A stretch of 64,000 bases of DNA from an uncultured Oscillospiraceae bacterium (GTDB lineage Bacteria > Bacillota > Clostridia > Oscillospirales > Oscillospiraceae), in contig CAJUQN010000002.1 in the NCBI GenBank assembly GCA_910588625.1, positions 60,323 through 124,322 of the forward strand. Direction: 5' to 3'. How positions within the stretch are numbered: position 1 is the first letter of the stretch; each line of letters opens with the position of its first letter. Below the pieces are notes generated by a model. It was given only the letters and a program-made list of their open reading frames with translations. It searched no databases and was not told the origin of the DNA. The translations under genes and the position numbers were made by a program. Positions 3,565 through 61,573 of the stretch are shown piece by piece.

Positions 3565-4298
3565 CCCATCATCTCCCTGCATTTGTTGAATACGGATTCA
3601 TAGTCCAACCCGTCATCCTGTGGGCGGCGGATAAGGACCAGTGTAATCCCCGTGGCGTGAGCTGCCGCGGCCTTTTCCTCAAAACCGCCGGTGCGGCCTC
3701 CGTCCTTAGTGACCAGATACCGAATATGATACTGACGGATCAGCGCCTCGTTCAGCTCCTGGGAAAAGGGACCCTGGAGGGCCAGAATGTTTCGTCCGGG
3801 CACCCCCGCCGCCTCGCAGGCGGCAAGGCTGGCGGCCAGCGGGAGCACGCGGGGATAGAGCCGTTCTCCGCCCAAAGGGGCGAATACGCCCAGCTCCTTG
3901 GCCCCGGTGGTAAGGAGGACATTTTCCTGTGTCGTTTTCAGCCATTCCGCCGCCTCAGAGGCAGAGGCGAAGAGCTTCGCGCCCTCTGGAACAGCGCTTT
4001 CCTCCCGAAGGAGCCGTAAAAGGGGCGTCCCAGCCTCCCCGCAGGCCGCGCGGATGTTTTGGCTGGCCTGGATGGCGTAGGGGTGGGTGGCGTCCACGCA
4101 CAGGTCAGCGCCCGACGCCGCTTGAGCCATCTCGGGCGGCTCCATCCGTCCGGACAGGACGGTCATCCCCGGCGCGCTCCCCTGTTCCGCCCGGCCGTAT
4201 TCGGTGGCCACGCAGACCGTGACCGACCCTCCCAGCTGGACCAGCGCATGGGACAGGCGCCGCCCCTCGGTGGTGCCGCTGAATATCACGAACTTCAT
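3555..4298 (-). CDS. cbiJ: cobalt-precorrin-6A reductase
   Basis: 247 aa, CbiJ/CobK-like (MKFVIFSGTTEGR...YLVTKDGG). Its start has an ATGA overlap with the upstream cbiH stop, and its 3' end overlaps the cbiET start. Confidence 0.85.
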   Translation of the reverse strand: MKFVIFSGTTEGRRLSHALVQLGGSVTVCVATEYGRAEQGSAPGMTVLSGRMEPPEMAQAASGADLCVDATHPYAIQASQNIRAACGEAGTPLLRLLREESAVPEGAKLFASASEAAEWLKTTQENVLLTTGAKELGVFAPLGGERLYPRVLPLAASLAACEAAGVPGRNILALQGPFSQELNEALIRQYHIRYLVTKDGGRTGGFEEKAAAAHATGITLVLIRRPQDDGLDYESVFNKCREMMGCR

Positions 4299-8099: not shown

Positions 8100-8399
8100 T
8101 TCATATGGTAAAGTAGCCGCATTCCGCGCTCCGTCCAGGGGCGCGGAGAGGAAACCGGTCAGAATCCGGTACAGCTCCCGCTGCTGTGATTGCAGGAGCT
8201 TGTCGTCGAAGCATAGAGGCAGCCATTCGGGGTTCCCCGGAGAAGGCAGGACGGCAGGCGCAGGCGTTTGATCGCGCCCCAATGCATAAGTCAGAAGACA
8301 TACGGCTATGGGTGCGTCTCAGGCCGGGCGGGCCTTGAGGCGGGGTTTGATTGCACGTAAAAAACGGGGCGTGGCAGAGTTTTCTGCCGCGCTTTTTTG
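8100..8399 (+). promoter_or_regulatory. cobalamin riboswitch with intrinsic terminator
   Basis: The core AGAGGAAACCGGTCAGAATCCGGTACAGCTCCCGCTGCTGTGAT fits the GGGAA..GGTG..A.TCC..CCCGC..CTGT pattern. GCAGCCATTCGGGG..GGAGAAGGCAGG follows, with a B12-box-like AAGTCAGAAGAC at 8288-8299. A 10-bp hairpin plus TTTTTT lies at 8369-8399. Confidence 0.8.
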
Positions 8400-24052: not shown

Positions 24053-24994
24053 TTATCTGTCTAAAAAGTCCTTGATCTCCGCCGCGATACGCGCATACTC
24101 AAAATCGTGGACGTAGTGGCCGCAGTCTAAGTAAATAATCCGCGCGTCGCTGCAGGTTTCAGCGAACCCGGCCTGAATGGCCCGCCAGTCCTCCTTGGTG
24201 AAGCCAGTGCCGCCGCTCCCGTCGGAGCAGAACAGCAGATAGGGTACGCCGGGGACGCCGCCCCGGGCCACCTGTTTGGCGTTGTCCTTGACGCACAAGG
24301 CCTCGTTTACCATGTCCTCCGTCATGGTGCGGCGGTAGAATACGGCGCGGTAGATATCCTTTTCGTCCTCCCACAGCGTCCCGTGCTGGATGGCGTCGCT
24401 TTCGGACAGTCCGGGGATCAGCCGGGTGATGCCGATGGAAGCGCCGAACTGCATCAGCCGCAGGAGGGGAGCGCTGATTTCCATCTCCTTATAGGCGGCG
24501 GGAACGGACATATCCAGGCCGATGATGGCGGACACCTCGTCCGGGTATGTTTGCGCCCAATACAGCGCCTCGATTCCCGACATGGAGTGGGGGCACAGAA
24601 CATACGGGGGCGTCAGGCCCGCTTGCGTCAGTGCTTCGCGGGTATTTTGCAGAATCGTGGCGATGTCCCGGCTCTTGCCTGTCACGTCGCTGCACCCATA
24701 GCCGAATTTCTCCACCACCGCGATCTTGCAGGTGTCAGTGAGCAGGGAATACAGGGATTTGAAGTCCAGGATGGGAGAGCAGGTGCCGCTGCCGGACATG
24801 AACACGATGGTGTCCTTGCCCTCGCCCCGAATATAGACGCTCATCTGCGCACCGTCCACCATGAGCGTCTCGCCGAGGCTGTAGTAAAGAAGGTCCTCTC
24901 TCTTGAGCTGAAACTGATGGTTAAGGGCGCATATGGCCAGGAGCAGAGCAAAGGCCCCGCCGATGGCCGCGAGGATTTTGAGCACTTTTTTCAT
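24053..24994 (-). CDS. membrane-anchored alpha/beta hydrolase
   Basis: Has an N-terminal TM helix and a nucleophile-elbow-like CPHSMSG. Its start has an ATGA overlap with the aroE stop, and ispE begins 10 nt downstream. Confidence 0.65.
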   Translation of the reverse strand: MKKVLKILAAIGGAFALLLAICALNHQFQLKREDLLYYSLGETLMVDGAQMSVYIRGEGKDTIVFMSGSGTCSPILDFKSLYSLLTDTCKIAVVEKFGYGCSDVTGKSRDIATILQNTREALTQAGLTPPYVLCPHSMSGIEALYWAQTYPDEVSAIIGLDMSVPAAYKEMEISAPLLRLMQFGASIGITRLIPGLSESDAIQHGTLWEDEKDIYRAVFYRRTMTEDMVNEALCVKDNAKQVARGGVPGVPYLLFCSDGSGGTGFTKEDWRAIQAGFAETCSDARIIYLDCGHYVHDFEYARIAAEIKDFLDR

Positions 24995-25836
24995 GTTCCC
25001 TCCCCGCGCAGGGCGTTTGTGGCGACGGCGGCCATTGGCCTCCGGTCCAGGGAACGGTCCAGAAAATGCTCCAGGGCCAGCACAGCCTGGTTCACCAGCA
25101 TGGGCAGGCCGTTCAGCGTCCGCAGGCCCCGGCGGCGGGCCTGGGCTAAAAGCTCCGTCTCAGCGGGGTGGTAGATGAGGTCGAATACCCCGGCGGCTGA
25201 GGGCAGGGCATTCAGGAAAGCGAAATCCTCGAACTGGCTGGGGCAGCCCTCCATGCCCAGGTTGGTGCAATTTACTAAGAGCTGGGACTTTGCCGCCAAA
25301 TTGGACAGCGTATCCACGTCAAACGCGGCGGGAGTCAGGCGCTTGAGCGGGTCGTGGGCACACAGCTCTTCGGCGCGGCCGAGGGTGCGGTTGCAGATGA
25401 AAACCTGTTTTGCCCCCGCCTGGGACAGCGCCAGGGCTGCCGCTTTTGCCGCGCCCCCCGCCCCCAGCAGGGTGACGGTGAGACGGTTGGGGTCCATGCC
25501 CAGACCGTCCTTGAGCGCGGCCACGGCTCCGCCGCCGTCGGTGTTGAAGCCGGTCCATCTCCCGTGTCGGAGACAGACGGTGTTGACCGCGCCTACGGCC
25601 TTTGCCGCCGGGTGGATTTCATCCAGCAGAGGGATCAAATCCTCCTTGTGGGGCATGGTGGCGTTGAAGCCGGTGACGCCGTTCGTCTTTGCCCAGAATA
25701 GGTATTCGGGCAATTCCCCCCGGCGGACCACATGGGCGGTATAGGGGATATCCAGTCCCAGTGCCGCCAGCATGGCCCCGTGGATGACCGGGGACTTGGA
25801 GTGCAGTACCGGGTCGCCGATGACTTGCAAGCTCAT
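24991..25836 (-). CDS. aroE: shikimate dehydrogenase
   Basis: Motifs VIGDPVLHSKSPVIHGA, GFNATMPHK, NTD and GAGGAAKA. Confidence 0.9.
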   Translation of the reverse strand: MSLQVIGDPVLHSKSPVIHGAMLAALGLDIPYTAHVVRRGELPEYLFWAKTNGVTGFNATMPHKEDLIPLLDEIHPAAKAVGAVNTVCLRHGRWTGFNTDGGGAVAALKDGLGMDPNRLTVTLLGAGGAAKAAALALSQAGAKQVFICNRTLGRAEELCAHDPLKRLTPAAFDVDTLSNLAAKSQLLVNCTNLGMEGCPSQFEDFAFLNALPSAAGVFDLIYHPAETELLAQARRRGLRTLNGLPMLVNQAVLALEHFLDRSLDRRPMAAVATNALRGEGT

Positions 25837-26264
25837 TTGCCGCCCTCCAGGAAGTGGTCCATAGCCATCAGATAGCCCTGGAAGCCGTGGCCATAGAGCT
25901 GGCCCACACAGGCGGGGGCGGTGACGGAAATGGAGCGGAAGGGCTCCCGCTGATCGATGTGGCTGATGTGCACCTCATAGGCGGGCACGTCCACCGCCTT
26001 CAGCGCGTCCAGGATAGCGTAGCTGTAGTGAGTGTAGGCGCCGGGATTGATGACAATGGCGTCATAGACGCCGTCAGCGGCATGGATCTGGTCAATGATG
26101 GCCCCCTCGTGGTTGGACTGGAAGCAGTCGGCGGTGGAATCGTGGGCAGCGGCGTAGTCTTGGACAAGGGCGCACAGGGCGCCGTAAGTCTGGTTGCCGT
26201 AGATGCCCGGCTCCCGCTTACCCAAAAGGTTTAGATTGGGGCCGTTTATGATGAGAAATTTCAT
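25833..26264 (-). CDS. aroQ: type II 3-dehydroquinate dehydratase
   Basis: Motifs INGPNLNLLGKREPGIYG..SNHEG..INPGAYTHYS..EVHISH. Confidence 0.9.
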   Translation of the reverse strand: MKFLIINGPNLNLLGKREPGIYGNQTYGALCALVQDYAAAHDSTADCFQSNHEGAIIDQIHAADGVYDAIVINPGAYTHYSYAILDALKAVDVPAYEVHISHIDQREPFRSISVTAPACVGQLYGHGFQGYLMAMDHFLEGGK

Positions 26265-26770
26265 GATTGGGCTACCTCCAGATAGATGGCGGCGATCAAG
26301 CGGTCGGCATACTCCGGGCTTTCCGGGTTTCGGACGAGATAGTCTGAGGAACGGCTGTAAATGGGTGCGCGGAGGGTGTAGCGCTGGATAAAATCTTCCC
26401 GCCCTGCCTGGGCCAGGGGACGGCCCGATACGTCCAGACTATCGTAGGTCTCGCCGGGGTCCCGGTCCAGCCAGAACACCAGGCTGCTTTGCTTGAGGGC
26501 GGCAATGGCCTCGCCCTGCAAGGGCAGACCGCCGCCGCAGGAGATGATAAGCCCCTCTTTTTTGCCCAATTCCCGGCACAACTCCAGTTCCAGGGTTCGG
26601 AAATGGGCCTCGCCGTCCGCGGCGAAAATGTCGGGGATGGAACGGCCCTGGCGCTCCTCAATGAGGGCGTCGGTGTCCACCAGGGGGCGCTGAAAGCGCT
26701 GGGACAATAGCCTGCCTACGGTGGTTTTCCCGCAGCCCATCATTCCGATCAAGACGATGTTTTTCGGCAT
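26261..26770 (-). CDS. aroK: shikimate kinase
   Basis: IVLIGMMGCGKTTVGRLL..DTD. The ATG at 26770 was chosen because AGAGGG lies 8 nt upstream; the track starts at the GTG at 26779. Confidence 0.9.
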   Translation of the reverse strand: MPKNIVLIGMMGCGKTTVGRLLSQRFQRPLVDTDALIEERQGRSIPDIFAADGEAHFRTLELELCRELGKKEGLIISCGGGLPLQGEAIAALKQSSLVFWLDRDPGETYDSLDVSGRPLAQAGREDFIQRYTLRAPIYSRSSDYLVRNPESPEYADRLIAAIYLEVAQS

Positions 26771-26784
26771 GGAGCACACCCTCT

Positions 26785-27939
26785 TTAGTCTAAATTAGAG
26801 CGGAACCACCCCAAAACGCGGAACTCCCCAGTGGTTTGCGCCAGCTCATGGAGGACGTCGTTGACGGTGGGGTTGTCGGGGGCCCCGGTGAACTCCAGGA
26901 AAAACATATACTGCCAGCTCTGCTCGGGCAGGGGGCGGGACTCCAGCTTCACCATATTCAGCCCGTGGAGGTTGAACACGGTGAGCACCTCGTGCAGGGA
27001 GCCCGCCTCATGGGGCAGGACAAACAGGGTGCTGATTTTATCTGCCCCCGGCCTCAGCTCCAGCCGGGGGGAAACCACCACAAAACGGGTGGTGTTGTGG
27101 CTGTTGTGGTTGATGGCATGGGCCAAAATCTCCAGCCCATACAGCTCCGCCGCCCGGTCAGAACAGATGGCGGCTTTTGTAATGTCCCCGCTGTCCGCCA
27201 CCATTTGAGCAGAACCGGCGGTGTCCGCCTGGGGCACCTGCTTCCAGTCCGGGTGGGTGTTCAGATACCGTTCGCACTGGAACAGCCCTTGCTCATGGGA
27301 GTAGACGTGGGTAATGGTATCCAGAGTGGCGCCCTTGGGGGCCATGAGGCAGTGCTCCACCCGCACGGTGGTTTCGCCCACCATGTAGCACTCGTACTGA
27401 GTCAGCAGGTCGTAGATCTGCCGGATGGCGCCGGTGGAGCTGTTCTCAATGGGCAGCACGGCGTAATCCGCCTGGCCCTCCCGGAGAGCCAGGAAGCAGT
27501 CCTCGAACTGCTCCAGCCCGACGGCGCCGGCGCCCTGGCCGAAAAAGTTCAGCGCGGCCTGCTCGCTGTAAGCCCCCGGCACGCCTTGATACACCACTTT
27601 GGGAGCGGCCACGGGCTGGCGCTTCGCGGCCTGAGCCTCCCGCCAGCGGCGGACGCCGGGGTTGTCGGGGCCCTGACCCATCAAATCCCGCTGCTGCCGC
27701 CGGGACAGGGCCATAATGGTTTGATAGAGGGTGATAACGGCGGGGCGCAGCTCCTCCCCGGCCAGCGCGCCCTTGTTTTGCAGCACCTGGCGCTCCCGCT
27801 CCTGGTCCAGGACGGGGAGGCCCTGGGAGCGCTTGTATTCCCCCACCTTGTGGGTCACATCCATGCGCTGCCGGAACAGCTCCACCAGACGGCGGTCAAT
27901 GGCGTCGATGTCCTGGCGCAGGGTCTGTAGATTGTCCAT
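26785..27939 (-). CDS. pheA: bifunctional chorismate mutase / prephenate dehydratase
   Basis: The N-terminus is an AroQ-type chorismate mutase (LRQDIDAIDRRLVELFRQRM), followed by a PDT domain (VYQGVPGAYSE) and a C-terminal ACT domain. Confidence 0.9.
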   Translation of the reverse strand: MDNLQTLRQDIDAIDRRLVELFRQRMDVTHKVGEYKRSQGLPVLDQERERQVLQNKGALAGEELRPAVITLYQTIMALSRRQQRDLMGQGPDNPGVRRWREAQAAKRQPVAAPKVVYQGVPGAYSEQAALNFFGQGAGAVGLEQFEDCFLALREGQADYAVLPIENSSTGAIRQIYDLLTQYECYMVGETTVRVEHCLMAPKGATLDTITHVYSHEQGLFQCERYLNTHPDWKQVPQADTAGSAQMVADSGDITKAAICSDRAAELYGLEILAHAINHNSHNTTRFVVVSPRLELRPGADKISTLFVLPHEAGSLHEVLTVFNLHGLNMVKLESRPLPEQSWQYMFFLEFTGAPDNPTVNDVLHELAQTTGEFRVLGWFRSNLD

Positions 27940-28427
27940 TAGCGGTACAGCTCCTTTAATTCGGCGTAATGCTCGGCGTTATTGCGCAGTCCGGCGATTT
28001 CCTCCCCGGTGAGAGGACGGACTACCTTGGCCGGATTGCCCAGCACCAGAGAGCCGTCAGGGGCGTCCATTTTGCCCGTGACTACGGCCCCCGCGCCCAC
28101 CATGCAGTTTTTGCCGATTTTCGCGAAATCCAGCAGAGTGGCGCCCATGCCGATGATGGTGTTGTCCCCCACCACTGCGCCGTGGACGATGGCCCCGTGG
28201 CCCACGGACACCCAGTCCCCCAGCTCGGTGGCGTGCTTCTCCGAGTGGAGCACACAGCAGTCCTGGACGTTGCAGCCCTGACCCAGCACGATGGGCTTGC
28301 CGTCGCCCCGGAGGACGGCGTTGAACCACACGGAACAGTCCCGGCCCAGGGTGACGTTGCCCACCACCGCCGCGCCGGGGAGGATGACCACATCTTCATT
28401 GGTTTGACGTAACGTTTTTAATTCCAT
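27939..28427 (-). CDS. gamma-carbonic-anhydrase-like / left-handed beta-helix (hexapeptide) protein
   Basis: 162 aa with hexapeptide repeats and the pattern VWFNAVLRGD..VGHGAIVHG typical of the PaaY/YrdA family. Confidence 0.75.
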   Translation of the reverse strand: MELKTLRQTNEDVVILPGAAVVGNVTLGRDCSVWFNAVLRGDGKPIVLGQGCNVQDCCVLHSEKHATELGDWVSVGHGAIVHGAVVGDNTIIGMGATLLDFAKIGKNCMVGAGAVVTGKMDAPDGSLVLGNPAKVVRPLTGEEIAGLRNNAEHYAELKELYR

Positions 28428-28445
28428 AAAAATTCCTCACAGTAT

Positions 28446-29492
28446 TCAAATTCCCATCAGCTCACAAGCCGCTAAGGCCGCCGCCGCCTCAATGACGGGC
28501 ACCGCCCGATGGACCACGCAGGGGTCGTGGCGGCCCTGGAGCTCCAGCACGGCGTTTTCCTTTTTTGCCAGGTCTACGGTGAACTGCTGGCGGGCGATGG
28601 AGGGGGTGGGGCGCATGGTGACCTCGAAGGTGAGCGGCATTCCGTTGGTGATGCCGCCGTTGACCCCTCCGGCACAGTTCTGCTCAGCTTTGACGGAGCC
28701 GTCGTCATCCATATACAGCGGGTCGTTGGCTTCGGAGCCTCGCATGAGGGCGAAGGCCATGCCCGCGCCGAAGGCCACCGCTTTCACCGCCGGAACGGCA
28801 AACAGGTACTGGGAGAAGATGCCCTCGGCGTTGCATCCGAAGTCCGGCGCGCCCAGTCCGGCGGGCAGGCCGAACACCCCGCACTCAATGGAGCCCCCCA
28901 CGGAGTCCAGGTCCTTTTTCGCCTCCAGGATAGCCTCCTGCATCTCCTTCCCCGCCGCGTCGTTAAGGACGGGAAAATCTTTCTCCGCCGCCGCCTTCAA
29001 GCTGTCCCAGTCCTCCAGGGCGTCGTCGTTGACGCCGTAGATGGAGGCGATGTGGGCGCCCACGTGAACACCCTTTTGGGCGAGGAGCTGCTTGGCTACG
29101 CCTCCCGCGAACACCAGCGGCGCGGTGAGCCGCCCGGAAAAGTGCCCACCGCCCCGGTAATCGTTGAAGCCGTCATACCGCACGTGGGCGGCGTAGTCGG
29201 CGTGGCCGGGCCGGGCCAGGTCTTTCGTGCGGGAGTAGTCCTTGGACCGTGTATCCGTATTCTCGATGAGGACGCACAGCGGCGCGCCGGTGGTCCTGCC
29301 CTCGAACACGCCGGAGAGGATGTGTGGCTCGTCGGCCTCCTTCCGTGGGGTGGACAGGGCGCTCTTGCCCGGAGCGCGGCGGCTCAGCTCGAAACGGATG
29401 GCGTCCAGGTCCAGCTCCAGCCCGGCGGGGACGCCCTCCAGCACCACGCCGATGGCGGGGCCGTGGGACTCGCCAAAAATGGAATATCTCAT
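28446..29492 (-). CDS. aroC: chorismate synthase
   Basis: MRYSIFGESHGPAIGVVLEG..RRAPG..GRSSARET-like region. The start was chosen at MRYS; the track ORF has a 31-aa low-complexity extension. Confidence 0.9.
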   Translation of the reverse strand: MRYSIFGESHGPAIGVVLEGVPAGLELDLDAIRFELSRRAPGKSALSTPRKEADEPHILSGVFEGRTTGAPLCVLIENTDTRSKDYSRTKDLARPGHADYAAHVRYDGFNDYRGGGHFSGRLTAPLVFAGGVAKQLLAQKGVHVGAHIASIYGVNDDALEDWDSLKAAAEKDFPVLNDAAGKEMQEAILEAKKDLDSVGGSIECGVFGLPAGLGAPDFGCNAEGIFSQYLFAVPAVKAVAFGAGMAFALMRGSEANDPLYMDDDGSVKAEQNCAGGVNGGITNGMPLTFEVTMRPTPSIARQQFTVDLAKKENAVLELQGRHDPCVVHRAVPVIEAAAALAACELMGI

Positions 29493-29507
29493 GATGGCAC
29501 TCCTTTC

Positions 29508-29539
29508 CTTCCTTTTTTCTTTGAAAAGAAAAAAGGAAG
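29508..29539. repeat. perfect 15-bp polypyrimidine/polypurine inverted repeat
   Basis: CTTCCTTTTTTCTTT-ga-AAAGAAAAAAGGAAG, between the GNAT stop and the aroC SD. Confidence 0.6.
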
Positions 29540-29566
29540 CGAAAAAAGAAACTTTTAGACGTTCTC

Positions 29567-30109
29567 TCAAGAAAGGGCAATCCAATAACGCTCCAGGTCC
29601 CTATGCTCCTTCGGCTCGTGAACGGTGCTCTCATACACGCCGCCGTTGGCTAGGATGGTGCGGCGGCTTCCCTCGTTGTCATTGCGACAGGAGATGAGCA
29701 CCCTGTCAAAGCCAAGCTCTTTACAGTAAGGCAGCATCAGGCGCAGCTGTTCCTTGGCATAGCCCTTGCGCTGCTCGCTGGGCCGGACGGAGTAGCCGAT
29801 GTGCCCGCCGAACTTCTCCAGATAGTCGGTGAAGTAGTGCCGCACCTGGATCATGCCCACTAGCTTGCTGTCGGATTCCCGGATGCTCAGGAATTGGGTG
29901 GTCTGCGCATACGCTTCCGGAACGGTGCTTCTATCGGCAAACAGGAGGATCTCCGGTAGCCACTCTCTCCAGAGTTTTTCCGGGGCGTCAATTTTATGCA
30001 GGGCGCTGGTGCCATCCATGGAGAGGCCGGCGCTGACAAATTCCTGCCGGTAGGCCCACACCTGGTCCAGATACGCCTCAGAGGGAAGGATCAATTTTAT
30101 CGTGTCCAT
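29567..30109 (-). CDS. GNAT family N-acetyltransferase
   Basis: 180 aa, Acetyltransf_3-like (..IGYSVRPSEQRKGYAKEQLRL..). It is embedded between aroA and aroC. Confidence 0.75.
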   Translation of the reverse strand: MDTIKLILPSEAYLDQVWAYRQEFVSAGLSMDGTSALHKIDAPEKLWREWLPEILLFADRSTVPEAYAQTTQFLSIRESDSKLVGMIQVRHYFTDYLEKFGGHIGYSVRPSEQRKGYAKEQLRLMLPYCKELGFDRVLISCRNDNEGSRRTILANGGVYESTVHEPKEHRDLERYWIALS

Positions 30110-30119
30110 CTGGTATCAC

Positions 30120-31358
30120 TCAATTCGTTTTTTGAATTTTTCCGCCCAGGACTTCATAGTCCTCCCAGAAATTGGGGTAGGACTTGGCCACGCACTCCGC
30201 GCCCAGCACGGTGACGGGTTTTTCGCACCGTGTGGCGGCGATGGCGGCCATCATAGCGATGCGGTGGTCGTTGAAGCTGTCCACGGTAACACCGCCATGC
30301 AGCATTCCCCTGCCCCGGATGGTGAGGGAATCCGGCCCCTCGGCCACATCCGCGCCCAGGGCCTTGAGCACCGCCGTGACGGAGGCCAAGCGGTCGCTTT
30401 CCTTGATGCGCAGGCGGGCGGCGTTGCCAATGTGGGTGGTGCAGCCGGGACGGAGAGCCGCCATAGCCGCCAGGGGGGGAACCAAATCGGGGCAGTTGGA
30501 CACGTCAAGGCCCGTGTCCTTCATCTGAGACAGACGGCCAAAAAAGCCGTCGATGGCCCGGTCCCCCTGGGCGGAGGGCCAGTTCAGGCCGGAGAGTTCC
30601 ACCGGGCTGTCCAGAAATTTGGCAGCGTACCAAAATGCCGCCTGGGACCAGTCCGCTTCCACCGTGAGGCTGTGCGGCTGGTAGAGCTGGTTTCCGGGGA
30701 TGAACCAGCCGTTTTTCCGTTCCTCGATACGGACGTTGAACCACTGAAGGGCCTCCAACGTCATGTCAATATACCCCCAGCTTTCTAAATTGGAGGTGAG
30801 GACAATTTCGGAATCCCCGTCCAGCAGAGGCAGGGCGTACAGCAGCCCGGTGATAAACTGGGAGGACACGTTGCCGGGAAGCTGATAGGTCCCCGGCGTG
30901 AGCAGCCCGGCGATGGTGAGCACGCCGTCCTTTTGCTCGTGAAAGACGCCCTTTTCATCGAACAGGTCGAAATAGGGCTTTTGCGGCCGCTCCATCAGCC
31001 GTCCCCGGCCAGTGAAAATGCCGCCGCCCCGCACCGCCAGCGCCACAGGAATGAGGAACCGCAGCGTGGACCCGCTCTCCCCGCAGTCCAGCCGGGGGTA
31101 GGCCAGGCGCCGCAGGGGGGACATGGCGTTTGCCCCCATGCCCCGGACGGTGACGGTGGAGCCATCCCGCGAAAGCTCCGCGCCCAGGTTTTCCAGACAG
31201 CTCATGGTGGCCTCGATGTCCTGAGAGTAGGCCACGTTAGAAATGACACACTCCCCGTCCGCCAGGGCGGCTGCGATGAGGACCCGGTGGGCCTGGGACT
31301 TAGAGGGCGGCGGGGTGACAGTTCCAGATAACCTGCCGGGGGTGATAGTGATGTTCAT
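30120..31358 (-). CDS. aroA: 3-phosphoshikimate 1-carboxyvinyltransferase (EPSP synthase)
   Basis: Motifs PPSKSQAHRVLIAAAL and LRIKESDR. 412 aa. Confidence 0.9.
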   Translation of the reverse strand: MNITITPGRLSGTVTPPPSKSQAHRVLIAAALADGECVISNVAYSQDIEATMSCLENLGAELSRDGSTVTVRGMGANAMSPLRRLAYPRLDCGESGSTLRFLIPVALAVRGGGIFTGRGRLMERPQKPYFDLFDEKGVFHEQKDGVLTIAGLLTPGTYQLPGNVSSQFITGLLYALPLLDGDSEIVLTSNLESWGYIDMTLEALQWFNVRIEERKNGWFIPGNQLYQPHSLTVEADWSQAAFWYAAKFLDSPVELSGLNWPSAQGDRAIDGFFGRLSQMKDTGLDVSNCPDLVPPLAAMAALRPGCTTHIGNAARLRIKESDRLASVTAVLKALGADVAEGPDSLTIRGRGMLHGGVTVDSFNDHRIAMMAAIAATRCEKPVTVLGAECVAKSYPNFWEDYEVLGGKIQKTN

Positions 31359-31397
31359 AGCGGCCTCCTTACGTGATTGGCCCCCACAGGGGGAAGG

Positions 31398-32459
31398 CTA
31401 TAACAGCTTTAACAGCGCGTTTTTAGAAATCTTGTGGGGGACGGCGTGGCCCATGCGGTCCAGCAGGATGACGGTGATGTCCGCCCCGGCGCCCTTTTTG
31501 TCCCGGCCCACGGCGGCGGCGTAGTCCTCGGCGGAGCACGGAATGAAGGTGGGCAGGCCAAGGCCCGCCAGGGTGCTTTCCAGCTGGCCGGACAGCTCCG
31601 CCGGGGTGACGCCCAGCGACACGCCCAGCTTGGCCGCGGCGCACATGCCCGCCGCCACCGCCTCGCCGTGGTTCCATTCGGTGTAATGCCCCGCCAGCTC
31701 GTAGGCATGGCCCAGCGTGTGGCCGAAGTTCAAAATCATCCGGAGCCCGGTATCCAGCTCGTCATCTATGACCACTTGGCGTTTAATATCACAGCAGGTA
31801 TACAAAATGTGTTCGATATCTGCCATCAGCGCCTGTCGAGAGGGCCGGACGGCCAGGAAGTTGAAAAAGTCCTTGTCCCAGATACAGCCGTACTTGACCA
31901 CCTCAGCCATCCCCGCCATGAACACGGGGAGCGGCAAAGAGTCCAGCGTGTCCGGGTCCATGAGAACCAGGCGGGGCTGGTAGAACGCCCCGGCCAGGTT
32001 TTTGCCGTGGTCCAGGTCCACGGCCACCTTGCCACCTACAGAGGAGTCAACCTGGGCCAGCAGAGTGGTGGGAATTTGGACAAAGGCCACCCCCCGCAGG
32101 ATGGTGGCTGCGGCGAAGCCCGCCAGATCCCCCACCACACCGCCGCCCAGGGCCACCACGCCGTCGGTACGGGTCAGGCCGAACTCCATGAAGTCCTCCC
32201 ACAGCTCGGTGAGCAGGCCGGGGTTCTTGCTGGACTCACCGGCGGGGATGACCGCGCCCCAGCACTGAAAACCGGCCCCCTCCAGGCTGGCTTTCAGCTT
32301 GGCAAAGTAGAGAGGGTGAACATTGGTGTCGGTGACGACGGCCAGCTTTTGGGCACGGGGCAGAAGGGCCTGGAGGCACTCCCCGGCCTGGGACAAGACC
32401 CCCCGCTCGATCACGATGTCGTACTCCCGGCCCGGAAGGGCTACGGTGAGGGTTTTCAT
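31398..32459 (-). CDS. aroB: 3-dehydroquinate synthase
   Basis: Motifs ALGGGVVGDLAGFAAA, GGKVAVD and NFGHTLGHA. Confidence 0.9.
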   Translation of the reverse strand: MKTLTVALPGREYDIVIERGVLSQAGECLQALLPRAQKLAVVTDTNVHPLYFAKLKASLEGAGFQCWGAVIPAGESSKNPGLLTELWEDFMEFGLTRTDGVVALGGGVVGDLAGFAAATILRGVAFVQIPTTLLAQVDSSVGGKVAVDLDHGKNLAGAFYQPRLVLMDPDTLDSLPLPVFMAGMAEVVKYGCIWDKDFFNFLAVRPSRQALMADIEHILYTCCDIKRQVVIDDELDTGLRMILNFGHTLGHAYELAGHYTEWNHGEAVAAGMCAAAKLGVSLGVTPAELSGQLESTLAGLGLPTFIPCSAEDYAAAVGRDKKGAGADITVILLDRMGHAVPHKISKNALLKLL

Positions 32460-32472
32460 TGCAGATTCCTCC

Positions 32473-32805
32473 TTAGAGCTGATCCACTACACTGGCTAGG
32501 GTGTCCAGGAAGGACTCCTCGCCCCAGGTGTTGATCTTGAAGAACATGGCTTGACTGCCCCCAGCGGTAATGGCGGTGAGATGGAGCTGGTCTCCCTCCC
32601 CCGCCAGGGTGAGGGAGAGGGCCACCCGGTTGCTGCCGCTCCAGCTGTACCGTTCGAACATCCGCACCGCCACTTGAACGGGGCCGATGGTGAAGTCCGT
32701 GCGGTCCTCCAGGGTGGCGGACATACTGCCGTTCAGTACGGCGTCCTCCAAACGGGACAACACCGCGTTAAAGTTGCCGGTAATGACACGTTCTAATTTA
32801 GCCAT
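32473..32805 (-). CDS. small conserved-looking hypothetical protein (110 aa)
   Basis: The start was set at MAKLERV, which has GGAGAA upstream. It is tightly packed between aroF and aroB. No signal peptide or TM helix. I cannot assign a family with certainty. Confidence 0.6.
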   Translation of the reverse strand: MAKLERVITGNFNAVLSRLEDAVLNGSMSATLEDRTDFTIGPVQVAVRMFERYSWSGSNRVALSLTLAGEGDQLHLTAITAGGSQAMFFKINTWGEESFLDTLASVVDQL

Positions 32806-32900
32806 GACCAAATTCTCCTTCCTGTCTGAGTACAGCATCCTTCACACCAGTTGGCCTTCGATTGACAGCTTGCTCTCGCGGGGAGAGGCCTCGCGCTGTC

Positions 32901-33920
32901 CTAAGCCAGCGTTTTTCCCATCAGTTCTATGAGCGGATTCAGCTTGCCCATCAGGTGTCGGAACTTCTCCGGAGTCAGGGACTGGGCTCCGTCGCACTTG
33001 GCGCAGGGCGGGTTGTTGTGGACCTCCACCATGAGGCCGTCCGCGCCCACAGCCACGGCGGCCATGGCCAGGGGCTCCACCATCCAGTACATTCCGGCGG
33101 CGTGGGAGGGGTCCACCACAATGGGCAGATGGCTCATCTTCCGGATGGCCGGAATGGCGGAAAGATCCAGAGTGTTGCGGGTGTAGGTTTCGAAGGTGCG
33201 GACCCCCCGCTCGCACAGGGTGACGTTCTCATTGCCCGCGGCCATGATATACTCTGCGGACATAATCCACTCCTCGTAGGTGTTGGACAGGCCCCGTTTC
33301 AGCAGGATGGGCTTGGACAGCTTGCCCACCTCTTTGAGCAGGTCGAAGTTCTGCATATTCCGGGCGCCCACCTGGACCAGGTCCACCTTCTCCTCAAACA
33401 GCCCGCAGTAGCGGGGGGCCATGATCTCGGACACGATGGGAAGGCCCGTAGCGGCTTTGGCCTCCATCAGGAGATCCAAGCCGTCGGTGCCCATGCCCTG
33501 GAAGGAGTAGGGGGAGGTGCGGGGCTTGAACGCGCCGCCCCGGAGCAGGGACGCTCCCGCCTCCTTCACGTCCTGGGCCACGCCGGTGATCTGCTCCTCA
33601 CTCTCCACCGAGCAGGGTCCGGCGATGACGGCGAACTTGTCCCCGCCGATGGACACGCCGGACACGTCCGCCACGGTGTCCTCGGGGTGGAACTTGCGGT
33701 TGGCCTTCTTGTAGGGCTCCTGAACGCGCATGACGCGTTCCACGTCGTCGTTCAGGGACAGTTTGTCCATGTCGATGTGGGCGGTGTCGCCCACCAGGCC
33801 CAGGATGGAACAGCCCACGCCGTTGGTGATGCCCACAGTGACGCCGTGATTGTGCTCCAGCTGGGCGACGAGGGTTTGAATTTTTTCCTGGCTTACGCCG
33901 GGCTTCATGACGATTACCAT
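32901..33920 (-). CDS. aroF: 3-deoxy-7-phosphoheptulonate (DAHP) synthase, type I-beta with N-terminal ferredoxin-like regulatory domain
   Basis: 339 aa. An N-terminal ~65-aa ACT/FL-like domain is followed by a KDO8PS-like TIM barrel (..GPCSVES..KPRTSPYSFQG..DPSH). Confidence 0.9.
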   Translation of the reverse strand: MVIVMKPGVSQEKIQTLVAQLEHNHGVTVGITNGVGCSILGLVGDTAHIDMDKLSLNDDVERVMRVQEPYKKANRKFHPEDTVADVSGVSIGGDKFAVIAGPCSVESEEQITGVAQDVKEAGASLLRGGAFKPRTSPYSFQGMGTDGLDLLMEAKAATGLPIVSEIMAPRYCGLFEEKVDLVQVGARNMQNFDLLKEVGKLSKPILLKRGLSNTYEEWIMSAEYIMAAGNENVTLCERGVRTFETYTRNTLDLSAIPAIRKMSHLPIVVDPSHAAGMYWMVEPLAMAAVAVGADGLMVEVHNNPPCAKCDGAQSLTPEKFRHLMGKLNPLIELMGKTLA

Positions 33921-33937
33921 AAATTAAGACTCCTCTC

Positions 33938-33986
33938 AAAATAAAAGGAAGCCCACGGTCCGCAGATACGCGGTCCATGAGCTTCC
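33938..33986 (-). terminator. intrinsic terminator (attenuator) in aro leader
   Basis: GGAAGCTCATGGACCGC-gtatct-GCGGACCGTGGGCTTCC followed by TTTTATTTT, ending 17 nt before the aroF ATG. Confidence 0.8.
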
Positions 33987-34026
33987 CAAAGGGTACAAAT
34001 TCAGGCGGGGCCTGCCGCCCCCTCAC

Positions 34027-34122
34027 TCACGCGCCGCGTTTCTCCATGCCAAAATAGCCGGACAGGATAAATCGAGTCCAGCCAAAGGTAAAGGTGAAGC
34101 TGTGGGCGTTGGAATGGGTCAT
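34027..34122 (-). CDS. candidate aromatic-rich leader peptide (31 aa)
   Basis: GAGGT lies 6 nt upstream of the ATG. The peptide is MTHSNAHSFTFTFGWTRFILSGYFGMEKRGA (5 F, 1 W, 1 Y). It sits between the promoter and the terminator. Confidence 0.55.
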   Translation of the reverse strand: MTHSNAHSFTFTFGWTRFILSGYFGMEKRGA

Positions 34123-34195
34123 GTGGTTACCTCGCTGATTTTGAGTGGGGTCCATATCACAGGCGCGCGGCGCCGCTGTGATAGGAACTGGAGAT

Positions 34196-34224
34196 ATTAT
34201 ATACTTTAATGCGGTGAAATGCAA
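34196..34224 (-). promoter_or_regulatory. promoter TTGCAT-17-TATAAT of the aro operon
   Basis: -35 at 34219-34224 and -10 at 34196-34201, immediately after the upstream gene's stop. Confidence 0.7.
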
Positions 34225-34232
34225 GTATTAAT

Positions 34233-35717
34233 TTATTTGTGATAGAGCTGGCTCCCCTGATACCGGGGCGTGCAGGTCAGCCGCAGGCCCAACTTGGAGT
34301 AGGTCCCGCTGTCGGCGGCGGTGAGGATGACGGAGGAGTGGGCCTCGCAGTCCCGCAGCTTGTCCAGGTTGTCCAGCGCCCGGGTGGCCAAGGGCACCGT
34401 AGCGGAGGAGATCGCCAGCGCGATGAGCACCTCATCGCTGTGCAGGCGGGGGTTGCGGCTGCCCAGGTGTCCGGTTTTCAGGGCCTGGATGGGCTCGATG
34501 GCCTCCCGTGTGATGAGGTGGACGGCGTCGTCGATGCCCGCCAGCATTTTCAGCGCGTCCAGCAGGGCGGCGGAGGTGGCCCCCATCAAATCTGACGTCT
34601 TGCCTGTGACCACCGTGCCGTCCGGGAGCTGGATGGCGGCGGCGGGCTCGCCGGTCTCCTCCGCCTTGGCCTCGGCGGCGGCAATGACCGGCCGCAGCTC
34701 CGGGTCCGCGTGGGCCTGCTTGGTCAGCAGCTCCAGCTTGTAGACGATCTCATCGCTCCCCTGCCCCCGGCGGCGGTCGCACAGGGCGGAGTAGTAGCGG
34801 CGGATGATCTCCTGCTTGGCGGCGTCGCACACCGCCTCGTCGTCGGTGATGCAGAAGCCCACCATGTTGACCCCCATGTCCGTGGGGGACTTATAGGGAC
34901 TCTCCCCCATGATCTCCTCGAACATGGCCTGGAGGACGGGAAACACCTCCACGTCCCGGTTATAGTTGACGGTGGTCTCCTCATAGGCTTGCAGGTGGAA
35001 GGGGTCGATCATGTTCACGTCGTTCAGATCCGCCGTGGCGGCCTCATAGGCCAGGTTCACCGGGTGCTTGAGGGGCAGGTTCCAGATGGGGAAGGTCTCG
35101 AATTTGGCATATCCGGCCATCACGCCCCGGTTGTGGTGGTGGTAGAGCTGGGACAGGCAGGTCGCCATCTTCCCGGAGCCGGGGCCGGGGGCGGTGACCA
35201 CCACCAGGGGGCGGGTGGTCTCGATGTAATCGTTGCGGCCGAAGCCCTGGTCAGACATGATATGCCCCACGTCGTGGGGATAACCGGGGATGGGATAATG
35301 CAGGTAGACTGTTACGCCCAAATCCTCCAGACGGCGCTTGAAGGCGTCCGCAGAGGGCTGGGCGGCGTAGCGGGTGATGACCACGCTGCCCACATACAGC
35401 CCTTCCCCGCGGAAGGTGTCGATGAGGCGCAAAACGTCCTCGTCGTAGGTAATGCCCAGGTCGCCCCGGACTTTGTTTTGCTCAATATCGGCGGCGTTGA
35501 TGGCCACCACGATCTCCGCGCTGTCCCGCAGCTCCAGCAGCATCCGGATTTTGCTGTCCGGAGCAAAGCCGGGCAGGACCCGGGCGGCGTGGTAGTCGTC
35601 AAACAGCTTGCCGCCAAACTCCAGGTACAGCTTGCCGCCGAACTGGGCGATGCGCTCCCGGATGCGGGCGGACTGGGTCTCCACATAGCGCTGGTTGTCA
35701 AATCCGACCTTGGACAT
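34233..35717 (-). CDS. UPF0371/DUF1846 family protein
   Basis: 494 aa. The N-terminus [44 protein letters not shown] is typical of this conserved family of unknown function. Confidence 0.8.
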
Positions 35718-59613: not shown

Positions 59614-61573
59614 CAAGAAGTTTTATATTACCACACCTATTTACTACCCCTCGGATAAGCTGCACATCGGCCACGCCTACTGCACCGTGGCCACCGACGC
59701 CATGGCCCGGTATAAGCGGCTGTGCGGCTATGATGTGATGTTCCTGACCGGCACCGACGAGCACGGCCAGAAAATCGAGGATAAGGCCAAGGAGGCGGGC
59801 GTCACCCCCAAGGAGTATGTGGACAACATCGTAGAGGGTCCCAAGGGCGTGCTGGACCTGTGGAAGCTGATGAACATCTCCAACGACCGGTTTATCCGCA
59901 CCACCGACGGCTACCATGTGTCCGCCATTCAGAAGATCTTCAAGCAGATGTACGACAACGGGGACATCTATAAGGGCACCTACAAGGGCAAGTACTGCAA
60001 GCCCTGCGAGTCCTTCTGGACGGAGTCCCAGCTGGTGGACGGCAAGTGCCCCGACTGCGGCCGGGACGTGGTGGACGCGGAGGAGGAGGCTTATTTCTTC
60101 CGCCTGTCCATGTATGCCGACCGGGTCCGGCGCCTGCTGGAGGACACCGATTTCCTGGAACCCCGTTCCCGGGTCCACGAGATGGTGAACAACTTCATCA
60201 AGCCTGGCCTGGAGGATTTGTGCGTGTCCCGCACCTCCTTCACCTGGGGCATCCCGGTGGACTTTGACCCCGGCCATGTGGTGTATGTGTGGATCGACGC
60301 GCTGTCCAACTATATCACCGCCCTGGGCTTCATGAATGACCGGTATGACGACTATGAGAAGTATTGGCCTGCCGATGTCCACTTTGTGGGTAAGGAGATC
60401 GTCCGGTTCCACTCCATCATCTGGCCCGCCATGCTCATGAGCCTGGGCGAGCCCCTGCCCAAGAAGGTGTACGGCCACGGCTGGCTGCTGCTGGGCGGCG
60501 GCAAGATGTCCAAGTCCAAGGGCAATATCGTGGACCCCTATCTGCTCAGTGAGCGGTACGGCGTGGATGCCCTGCGGTTCTTCCTGCTGCGCTCCTTCCC
60601 CTTCGGGTCCGACGGCAACTTCACCAACGAGCTGCTGATCCAGACCATCAACGTGGACCTGGCCAACGACCTGGGCAACCTGGTCAGCCGCACCACCGCC
60701 ATGGCGGAGAAGTATTTCGGCGGAAAGCTGCCCGAGGCCAAGCAGAGCGCAGAGCTGGACAAGGAGCTGATCTCTCTAACCACCGGTTTGCGGGCCCGGT
60801 ATGAGGAGCAGATGGAACGGTTCCAGTTCCAGAACGCCCTGGAGGAGGTCTTCAAGGTCGTCCAGCGGGCCAACAAATATATCGACGAAAACGCTCCCTG
60901 GACCCTGGCAAAGGATATGGAGGCCAACGGCCCCCGGCTGGCCCATGTGCTCTACAACCTGCTGGAAACCGTCCGGGTGTGCACCGTGCTGCTGACCCCC
61001 TTTATGCCCGAGAGCTGTGAAAAGATTTTCGCCCAGATCGGCGCCGGCCCTGACGCCCAGACCTGGGACAGCGCCGCGCAGTGGGGTGTGCTCCCTGCCG
61101 CCGTGTCCGTCGCCAAGGGCGAGAACTTGTTCCCCCGCATCGACCTGAACAAGGAGCTGGCCGAGCTGGACCGCATCCAGGAGGAGGCCAAAAAGGCCGC
61201 CCTGCCTGCCATCGAGATCGAGCCCCAGCTGGAGGAGAAGGTGGACTTCGACACCTTCTGTAAGTCCGATTTCCGGGCTGTGAAGGTGAAGGACTGCCAG
61301 AACGTGAAGAAGTCGGACAAGCTGTTGAAGTTTACCTTGGACGACGGCACCGGCGCCGACCGCCAGATCCTGTCCGGCATTGCCAAGTGGTATAAGCCGG
61401 AGGAGCTCATTGGAAAAACACTGGTTGCCATTGTCAACCTGCCCCCCCGCAAGATGATGGGACAGGAGAGCCAGGGGATGCTCATCTCCGCTGTGCATAC
61501 GGAGAAGGGCGAGGAGTGCCTCCACCTGCTGATGGTGGACGATGCCATCCCCGCTGGGGCGAAGCTGTGCTGA
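59606..61573 (+). CDS. metG: methionine--tRNA ligase with C-terminal tRNA-binding (EMAPII-like) domain
   Basis: HIGH-type motif LHIGHAY, a CxxC..CxxC zinc knuckle, and KMSKS. Confidence 0.95.
   Translation: MNDKKFYITTPIYYPSDKLHIGHAYCTVATDAMARYKRLCGYDVMFLTGTDEHGQKIEDKAKEAGVTPKEYVDNIVEGPKGVLDLWKLMNISNDRFIRTTDGYHVSAIQKIFKQMYDNGDIYKGTYKGKYCKPCESFWTESQLVDGKCPDCGRDVVDAEEEAYFFRLSMYADRVRRLLEDTDFLEPRSRVHEMVNNFIKPGLEDLCVSRTSFTWGIPVDFDPGHVVYVWIDALSNYITALGFMNDRYDDYEKYWPADVHFVGKEIVRFHSIIWPAMLMSLGEPLPKKVYGHGWLLLGGGKMSKSKGNIVDPYLLSERYGVDALRFFLLRSFPFGSDGNFTNELLIQTINVDLANDLGNLVSRTTAMAEKYFGGKLPEAKQSAELDKELISLTTGLRARYEEQMERFQFQNALEEVFKVVQRANKYIDENAPWTLAKDMEANGPRLAHVLYNLLETVRVCTVLLTPFMPESCEKIFAQIGAGPDAQTWDSAAQWGVLPAAVSVAKGENLFPRIDLNKELAELDRIQEEAKKAALPAIEIEPQLEEKVDFDTFCKSDFRAVKVKDCQNVKKSDKLLKFTLDDGTGADRQILSGIAKWYKPEELIGKTLVAIVNLPPRKMMGQESQGMLISAVHTEKGEECLHLLMVDDAIPAGAKLC

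Follow-up and report, generated by a model that had tools for sequence, protein, structure and literature searches.

Upstream of aroF, in a stretch of DNA from an uncultured Oscillospiraceae bacterium, there is a 267-nt leader with a short open reading frame (ORF) rich in aromatic codons, and we consider it probable (at about 0.8) that this leader attenuates transcription by a ribosome-mediated mechanism of the pheL/trpL kind and thereby controls an operon for the shikimate pathway and pheA. The DNA analysed is the whole 64,000-nucleotide stretch from position 60,323 to 124,322 of contig CAJUQN010000002.1, here called the window, and the leader is on its minus strand, where direct reading gives the order, 5' to 3', of promoter, 5' hairpin, Shine-Dalgarno (SD) sequence, 31-codon ORF, spacer, terminator and aroF. 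Between the promoter and aroF there is thus a conserved ORF that looks translated and carries aromatic codons, together with a terminator and two covarying hairpins. An initial annotation of the window had proposed an aromatic leader-peptide attenuator here, and the proposal is supported by conservation in relatives, by an alternative structure and by the lack of a match to any known RNA, all of this evidence being computational. The elements that it described were all located as claimed, on the minus strand, and their coordinates are given in Table 1.

Five Phe codons, one Tyr codon and one Trp codon make up 7 of the 31 codons of the leader ORF, as against 7.2% aromatic codons in the neighbouring genes (binomial P = 0.006), and direct reading confirms both this content and the GAGGT 6 nt before the ATG that had been reported for it. 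Six of the 567 small ATG-ORFs in the window are equally aromatic, and among them just one other combines an SD sequence with an aromatic cluster, that one being out of frame inside pheA. By itself the leader ORF in the window is about a 1% event, and its significance comes from conservation.

The sample for conservation was 80 loci encoding aroF relatives from reference genomes, with protein identity from 94% down to 60%, mostly Oscillospiraceae, then Clostridium and Lachnospiraceae; the classification covers the 76 regions with enough upstream sequence. A homologous ORF is present upstream of aroF in 53 of the 76 (window included), in the genera Flavonifractor, Pseudoflavonifractor, Lawsonibacter, Intestinimonas and Enterenecus. 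Its ATG is invariant, with a GAGG-type SD sequence 6-10 nt 5' of it in nearly all, and the SD also belongs to the consensus of the promoter alignment. With a peptide hidden Markov model, about 57 of the 78 aroF-upstream regions have a forward-frame match and none has a reverse-frame match, and a nucleotide profile gives one match per locus, always immediately 5' of aroF, the single match in the window being at 33940-34135. All 59 gap runs in the ORF columns are multiples of 3, whereas 29 of 162 are so in the non-coding columns of that alignment. Every member has the leader frame open, but of 43 only 13 and 22 have an open frame in the other two. In the per-codon table seven aligned columns are aromatic in 70-100% of the sequences, Phe being replaced almost only by Tyr (one column has F in 21 and Y in 16, with 5 others), and the Trp column is W37/Y2/F2; the aromatic fraction is 22% over 51 homologues and 7% in neighbouring genes. 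Conservation is thus very strong for the short ORF first described from the window alone, for its frame and for its aromatic codons.

The conservation of the peptide is unusual, and is largely RNA constraint, because there are many positions at which residues vary while nucleotides stay fixed: one codon column has A, S, T, F or Y yet is always xCC, and another has M, T, I or N yet is always Axx. The stop position varies from 27 to 46 codons among the homologous leaders, and the C-terminal part of the peptide is also variable. Pfam and NCBIfam scans of four leader peptides gave no match, and a 42-aa in-frame extension, used as query against 5.8 billion protein clusters, found only 4 near-identical unnamed 31-aa peptides, whose contigs added no covariation. 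A metagenome scan with a 15-nt ORF pattern, which was too short for the purpose, returned 120 matches of which only 2 were real leaders.

The 17-bp terminator hairpin and U-tract that had been placed between the ORF and aroF are confirmed by folding and direct reading, although a generic terminator scan finds only an inner fragment of the hairpin and it is folding that recovers the full stem. The aroF ATG follows the U-tract at a distance of only 17 nt, so that transcription of aroF must pass the terminator, and in most loci the distance from terminator to aroF is 17-60 nt with no second promoter. A simple detector finds hairpin and U-tract in 47 of 55 leaders, and the stem has strong covariation, with 94.5% of cells paired, compensatory changes at 10 of 14 pairs and none of 500 shuffles as good. 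The ORF-internal hairpin has 88% of cells paired and four pairs with double changes, again with 0/500 shuffles as good, and is recovered by RNAalifold in both subgroups. The 39-nt spacer from stop codon to terminator holds a further hairpin (hairpin f), the homologue of which in Flavonifractor-type leaders has double changes at all six pairs (no more than 3 of 500 shuffles as good). The leader as a whole folds more stably than shuffles (z = -3.9).

The initial annotation had not been able to derive by eye an alternative structure that involves the 5' arm of the terminator. We find a candidate in the stop-codon region at 34039-34025, with about -20 kcal/mol. By RNAduplex, segment 2 pairs with the terminator 5' arm (segment 3) at -20.1 kcal/mol, overlapping the UGA, and is the best-pairing window of the whole leader; the predicted antiterminator (2:3) helix consists of ACGCGG 34039-34034 with CCGCGU 33973-33968 and CGUGAGU 34031-34025 with GCUCAUG 33982-33976. 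In the full-length minimum free energy (MFE) fold, segment 2 is instead paired with segment 1 in an anti-antiterminator (1:2) helix, in which the UUC of Phe9 pairs with GAA and which is capped by the ORF-internal hairpin. Transcripts truncated before the terminator 3' arm were also folded with a 30-nt ribosome footprint at varied positions: with the ribosome on any aromatic codon the antiterminator forms, and with the ribosome on the stop codon, and at that position only, it is lost.

The relatives give further support for both pairings. Windows near the stop codon are enriched for complementarity to the terminator 5' arm (mean z = -1.2, negative in 36 of 43), and across the family segment 1 is complementary to segment 2 (mean z = -1.26, negative in 43 of 50). 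In cognate tests, for which the effectively independent units are 4-6 subgroups only, pairing of the stop region is better with the 5' arm of the same leader than with arms from other subgroups in 6/6 subgroups, and for the 1:2 helix cognate beats non-cognate in 4/4; in each case 0 of 5000 permutations were as low. In the well-aligned Flavonifractor subgroup (subgroup B) the 2:3 helix is 82% paired in register and 35-49% when slid, and the 1:2 helix is 71% paired in register, with both helices at 35-53% when slid.

We infer from these results two alternative pairings, the logic by which ribosome position would choose between them and the amino acids sensed. Transcription would proceed from about 34187 and a ribosome would translate the 31-codon leader ORF. 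With aromatic amino acids plentiful and charged tRNAs abundant, the ribosome would reach the UGA and cover segment 2 (34050-34024), the terminator at 33987-33946 with its U-tract would form, and transcription would stop 17 nt before aroF. With Phe-tRNA limiting, and probably also with Tyr- or Trp-tRNA limiting, the ribosome would stall on the aromatic codons in or beside segment 1 (34116-34087); segment 1 would then release segment 2, which would pair with the terminator 5' arm, and the operon would be transcribed.

There are several results that weigh against so simple a scheme. The column-wise compensatory changes for the 2:3 and 1:2 helices are not significant in family or subgroup alignments, because both strands are so conserved, and RNAalifold on alignments truncated before the 3' arm predicts neither helix but only the ORF-internal hairpin. 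When the leader is folded at equilibrium with a ribosome mask, the terminator wins for nearly all placements of the ribosome, and the attenuation model must therefore be kinetic. Without a ribosome the truncated transcript of the window forms the antiterminator and not the 1:2 helix, so that the trpL default, in which an untranslated leader is terminated, is not reproduced. Nucleotide conservation at synonymous sites exceeds what regulatory codons alone would need. Lastly, in some Flavonifractor-type leaders the stop codon is 12-15 nt upstream of the AAUGGG antiterminator strand and in some Clostridium-type leaders it is up to 36 nt downstream of the UAAUGAGU strand. That a ribosome at the stop codon simply occludes the strand is doubtful in these leaders, and the details of occlusion thus probably differ between subtypes.

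Two other measures were tried and rejected. Fixed-column models on the family MAFFT alignment (e:T5, the ORF-internal 3' half against T5, and a:e) gave about 62-71% pairing, no better than shuffles, as registers differ between subgroups and the alignment of the stop region is poor. A generic score for pairing of the 5' arm in truncated transcripts does not discriminate, the arm always finding some partner.

Other explanations have to be weighed against an attenuator that reads the supply of charged aromatic tRNAs. It could be stalling set by the nascent peptide, as in TnaC, or programmed by a codon pair, through the G-W-T/A-R-F ... G-Y/F-F-G core or CGA/UUU and responding to free aromatic amino acid or tRNA status, that decides between terminator and antiterminator. 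The Arg-CGA/Phe-UUU pair at 34074-34069 is near-invariant in both subtypes (CGA in 41/43 and UUU in 43/43 main-type leaders, and the pair in 9/9 leaders of the second subtype) though both are locally rare synonyms, CGA being 3% of the Arg codons and TTT the minor Phe codon in neighbouring genes; and its structural setting differs between the subtypes, the apex of a hairpin in one and a stem in the other, which a single RNA constraint does not account for. The peptide core is also far more conserved than in typical leader peptides. However the xCC and Axx columns point to constraint on RNA, the C-terminal part and the stop position are variable, Clostridium-type leaders have no R-F, and, if free Phe caused arrest at these positions, the sign of regulation would be wrong for a biosynthetic operon; we consider such stalling quite improbable as the deciding event. 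About as improbable is an RNA-only switch, a riboswitch or protein-binding site that senses an aromatic amino acid, an intermediate or a protein, with the ORF incidental or modulatory. It would fit the high conservation at synonymous sites (CUCACAACUGCAUCC, CGAUUUA, GGAUG..AAUGGG and the GCUCAUUGA terminator core), the three covariation-supported helices and the stable fold, but not the ORF indels in multiples of 3, the invariant ATG and SD sequence and the one frame that is always open, nor the change of Phe to Tyr rather than to other single-step neighbours, nor the recurrence of aromatic-rich ORFs in subtypes with otherwise different RNA sequence. There is no Rfam match in the leader, and a TRAP site is rejected: where 9-11 (G/U)AG triplets spaced by 2-3 nt are needed, the 267-nt leader has no chain longer than 2, which is not above what shuffles give.

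The peptide is conserved across genera and gene callers occasionally predict a 31-aa protein, as would be expected of an independent gene for a small hydrophobic aromatic protein, with its own terminator partly insulating aroF and no sensing of amino acids. This we think very unlikely: in the window and the sampled loci the ORF is never found elsewhere but always between the conserved promoter and aroF, close to the latter and in most loci with no second promoter, nucleotide constraints follow the RNA pairings, and one locus without the leader has the promoter joined directly to aroF, as expected of a cis-regulatory cassette. The lowest probability, a barely credible one, goes to a T-box leader so diverged that the Rfam model misses it. 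In subgroup B there is a GGGUGG beside the antiterminator strand that is reminiscent of the T-box sequence, and published work warns that diverged T-boxes can be missed, as reported for some streptococcal pheS leaders (PMC5314783). However the T-box model (RF00230) has no match at E <= 10 in a 600-nt search of the leader region, while it scores 108 and 130 bits on the Hathewaya locus used as positive control; as a T-box was detected upstream of aroF in Hathewaya, T-boxes can be detected at this position, and their absence here is real. Neither Stem I nor a specifier is present in the architecture, and the roughly 100 nt upstream of the antiterminator, where Stem I would lie, are coding ORF. 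The window's own subgroup has no GGGUGG, and by sequence reading there is a linker of about 19 nt on the 3' side as against a 7-nt 5' bulge. We therefore reject the T-box reading of the GGGUGG in subgroup B, given the clear match on the control and none in the leader.

If the leader is an attenuator that responds to uncharged tRNA, as we prefer, it may still do more than count hungry codons. Either CGA-UUU as a programmed, sensitised stall site or the W-x-R-F peptide acting in the ribosome could contribute, and we offer this as an unlikely but not negligible addition. A slow I:A-wobble CGA in the P site could render the reading of the next codon, for Phe, hypersensitive to the level of Phe-tRNA. 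The positions at which F and Y are interchangeable, with the W position, could let one attenuator of the common pathway respond jointly to all three aromatic amino acids.

With regard to known RNA families, Rfam at gathering thresholds over the whole window has no match in the leader, and a cmscan search of 33800-34400 at E <= 10 yielded two chance matches only, DGCR5 and Yfr20, and no leader family. The initial annotation had seen no T-box core or specifier-stem features and had named a covariance-model match that explains the leader as a refuting result; at E <= 10 there is no such match. The only gathering-level Rfam match in the window is a Cobalamin riboswitch (RF00174) at 8108-8320 on the plus strand, with 64.7 bits and E = 1e-13. 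The Lactococcus leu/phe-leader is an Rfam family and a leader-peptide attenuator of a Firmicute.

The arrangement had also been presented as unusual for a Firmicute. Such a mechanism is uncommon in Firmicutes, but its unusualness was overstated, as leader peptides for amino acids that replace T-boxes have been reported in Firmicutes since 2010 (PMC2965389, PMC5314783), including a His leader upstream of hisZ/hisS paralogues in bacilli (PMC2965389) and leuL-like leaders in Streptococcus and Lactococcus (PMC5314783), and an upstream ORF (uORF) of aroF was proposed in 2021. The last of these, uORFC-13-1, is by analogy the closest precedent: Brewer et al. proposed Phe-dependent attenuation for a uORF with Phe codons and a terminator upstream of aroF in Acholeplasma (PMC8632094). 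Like the leader described here it is upstream of aroF and has promoter, ribosome binding site (RBS), start codon, a Phe-coding U-run and then an intrinsic terminator, and it too is purely computational. It was however found only in Acholeplasma and environmental sequences, with 24 representatives and 'at least one' Phe codon (PMC8632094), whereas the present family is in Oscillospiraceae and Clostridium, with 5-8 aromatic codons and a distinct conserved core, the comparison being with the published description only.

In comparison with pheL-pheA (Rfam Phe_leader), trpL, leuL and hisL, there is the same succession of an SD-led ORF with cognate codons, then putative 1:2 and 2:3 pairings and a 3:4 pairing with a U-tract, and as in the pheL/trpL class the regulatory codons are in or beside segment 1, the stop codon is in segment 2 and a gene of the Phe pathway would be controlled (pheA being in the operon). 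It differs in having no sequence or covariance-model similarity to that class, in that the aromatic codons are spaced and mixed (F-x-F-x-F-G-W...F...Y-F) with no run of a single codon, and in that the ORF itself folds as a long hairpin with a covariation-supported cap; and it precedes the whole common pathway and pheA in a member of the Clostridia, where pheL precedes pheA alone. The His and Leu leaders of Firmicutes are a Gram-positive precedent for 'regular' leader-peptide attenuators in place of T-boxes, but involve other amino acids, genes and lineages, none being on a shikimate operon or in Clostridia, and no Rfam match links the present leader to them. T-box leaders have the same genomic position and make the terminator/antiterminator decision on the charging of aromatic tRNA that is proposed for this leader, but here the proposed sensor is a translating ribosome and not direct tRNA binding, and Stem I, specifier and T-box sequence are lacking. 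In an incomplete coverage of the literature we found no paper on such a leader in Clostridia or Oscillospiraceae. The leader family thus appears to be undescribed and unannotated, while the kind of attenuator is already known from pheL, the Firmicute His and Leu leaders and uORFC-13-1.

Aromatic amino-acid biosynthesis in Firmicutes is usually annotated as under T-box or TRAP control, and a large block of gut Clostridia, comprising the five Oscillospiraceae genera listed above and several Clostridium species, would have a different arrangement, with the leader before an aroF that in this window heads the whole shikimate and Phe operon. There is an annotation gap, as Rfam lacks the element and the peptide is virtually never predicted as a gene (4 among the 5.8 billion protein clusters). 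If the leader were recognised, regulons could be annotated better in commensals that are abundant in the human and animal gut. The leader would also account for an expected 'sRNA-like' (small RNA-like) transcript of about 200 nt in their transcriptomes, about 245 nt long in the window, and, if the sensing is true, would be a compact Phe/Tyr/Trp-responsive part for engineering anaerobes.

Other leaders at the same position are also informative. Besides the main type, with its 53 members counting the window, there are 9 regions with a second subtype (M..NRFYGYFTCSFWGAG..), 5 with an AT-rich Clostridium type (..YFYYGNWSYFFSAGYF..), 3 with another aromatic-rich uORF and terminator, 1 with a T-box (Hathewaya proteolytica), 2 with leader deletions and 4 with nothing recognisable upstream of aroF. 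The loci are a natural series of sensors swapped at one position, with a leader peptide in three subtypes, a T-box and deletions. A cultivable strain, Flavonifractor plautii ATCC 29863 (locus L043), bears the leader.

The second subtype (L049, L055, L056, L058, L059, L062, L064, L065 and L029) has an ORF of about 25 codons (..NRFYGYFTCSFWGAG.C..) and its own conserved terminator, GCUCCUGCUGAAU..AUUCAGYCAGGAGC; its ORF folds as a long hairpin, the apical loop of which displays UUU(U) Phe codons. In Clostridium-type leaders there is an antiterminator pairing of 8-9 bp between UAAUGAGU and ACUCAUUA, and in one of them (L070) the element UCUAAUGAGUU is read in another frame. The Hathewaya locus (L077) has two T-boxes, at 1639-1870 and 3667-3931, one directly 5' of aroF and the other about 2 kb farther upstream. 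Of the two loci with deletions, L006 (upstream of 4001) keeps the TTGCAT-17-TATAAT promoter and has lost the whole leader, the promoter being joined almost directly to the aroF RBS, and L009 (3933-3982) has lost the uORF and keeps promoter and terminator. Both are close relatives, with aroF 90-91% identical, and could be deregulated or constitutively attenuated alleles, or artefacts of metagenome-assembled genome (MAG) assembly.

The promoter had been described as near-consensus, which is overstated for the -35 sequence, as TTGCAT matches TTGACA at 3 of 6 positions only; this is also why a simple consensus scan did not report it. In the promoter alignment a cTTGCAaT-17-TATAAT consensus is kept upstream of the leader in 45 of 48 relatives, and TTGCAT-17-TATAAT is thus very probably a real promoter, with an inferred transcription start near 34187. 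In most relatives the distance from -10 to SD is about 25 nt, and an insertion of about 45 nt between transcription start and leader SD, which forms the 5' hairpin, is present only in the window, L002 and L004. This hairpin (34183-34155) was tried as a part of the mechanism and rejected as a family feature; it is outside the family core as it is confined to those three leaders. In the full-length MFE fold the region just 5' of the leader SD (34138-34153, CUCAAAAU..GGAC) pairs with the U-tract and aroF SD (33927-33942, AUUUUGAG..GUCU), and this predicted pairing could give extra translational masking of aroF in terminated or read-through RNA.

Table 1. Leader elements and genes of the operon, all on the minus strand of the window
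Feature	Position	Details
Promoter	34194..34222	-35 TTGCAT 34222-34217, 17-nt spacer, -10 TATAAT 34199-34194; direct reading
5'-proximal hairpin	34155..34183	UAUCACA..UGUGAUA, inner GGCGC/GCGCC stem; GC-rich; seen in MFE folds
Leader SD	34129..34133	GAGGT, 6 nt before ORF ATG
Leader ORF	34027..34122	31 codons + TGA stop 34029-34027; encodes MTHSNAHSFTFTFGWTRFILSGYFGMEKRGA
Segment 1 (putative anti-antiterminator strand)	34087..34116	codons 3-12, holds Phe9 and Phe11; pairs with segment 2 in predicted terminated fold
Phe9	34098-34096	aromatic codon
Phe11	34092-34090	aromatic codon
Phe13	34086-34084	aromatic codon
Trp15	34080-34078	aromatic codon
Arg17	34074-34072	CGA, invariant codon of leader ORF
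Phe18	34071-34069	aromatic codon
Tyr23	34056-34054	aromatic codon
Phe24	34053-34051	aromatic codon
ORF-internal hairpin	34055..34084	UGGCUGGAC x GUCCGGCUA (GGCUGG..CCGGCU); caps predicted 1:2 helix; invariant CGA-UUU at apex
Segment 2	34024..34050	last codons + UGA stop; putative antiterminator 5' strand ACGCGG 34039-34034, CGUGAGU 34031-34025
Hairpin f + linker	33989..34024	core CAGGC 34014-34010 x GCCUG 34006-34002; GC-rich; enclosed by predicted antiterminator helix
Intrinsic terminator	33938..33987	hairpin 33987-33946, 17 bp (13+4, one A.A mismatch), -29.9 kcal/mol
Terminator 5' arm/segment 3	33987-33968	
Terminator 3' arm/segment 4	33963-33946	
U-tract	ends 33938	UUUUAUUUU
Operon (putatively regulated)	24991..33937	NCBIfam + Pfam scans
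aroF SD	33937-33930	GAGAGGAG
aroF	33920-32901	coding sequence, ATG at 33920
DUF6054 gene	32838-32473	
aroB	32459-31398	
aroA	31358-30120	
GNAT acetyltransferase gene	30109-29567	
aroC	29585-28446	
Gamma-carbonic-anhydrase/PaaY-like gene	28427-27939	hexapeptide-repeat protein
pheA	27939-26785	chorismate mutase + prephenate dehydratase (CM+PDT)
aroK	26779-26261	
aroQ	26264-25833	
aroE	25836-24991	

NCBIfam and Pfam scans confirm that the operon has all seven shikimate steps and pheA, as stated in the initial annotation. Three genes outside the shikimate pathway are embedded in it, for a DUF6054 protein (directly after aroF), a GNAT acetyltransferase and a gamma-carbonic-anhydrase-like protein. 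As listed, the aroC ORF begins at a TTG and overlaps there with the GNAT gene, and as the family match begins at residue 32 the true start of aroC is probably about 90 nt downstream of the first codon of that ORF.

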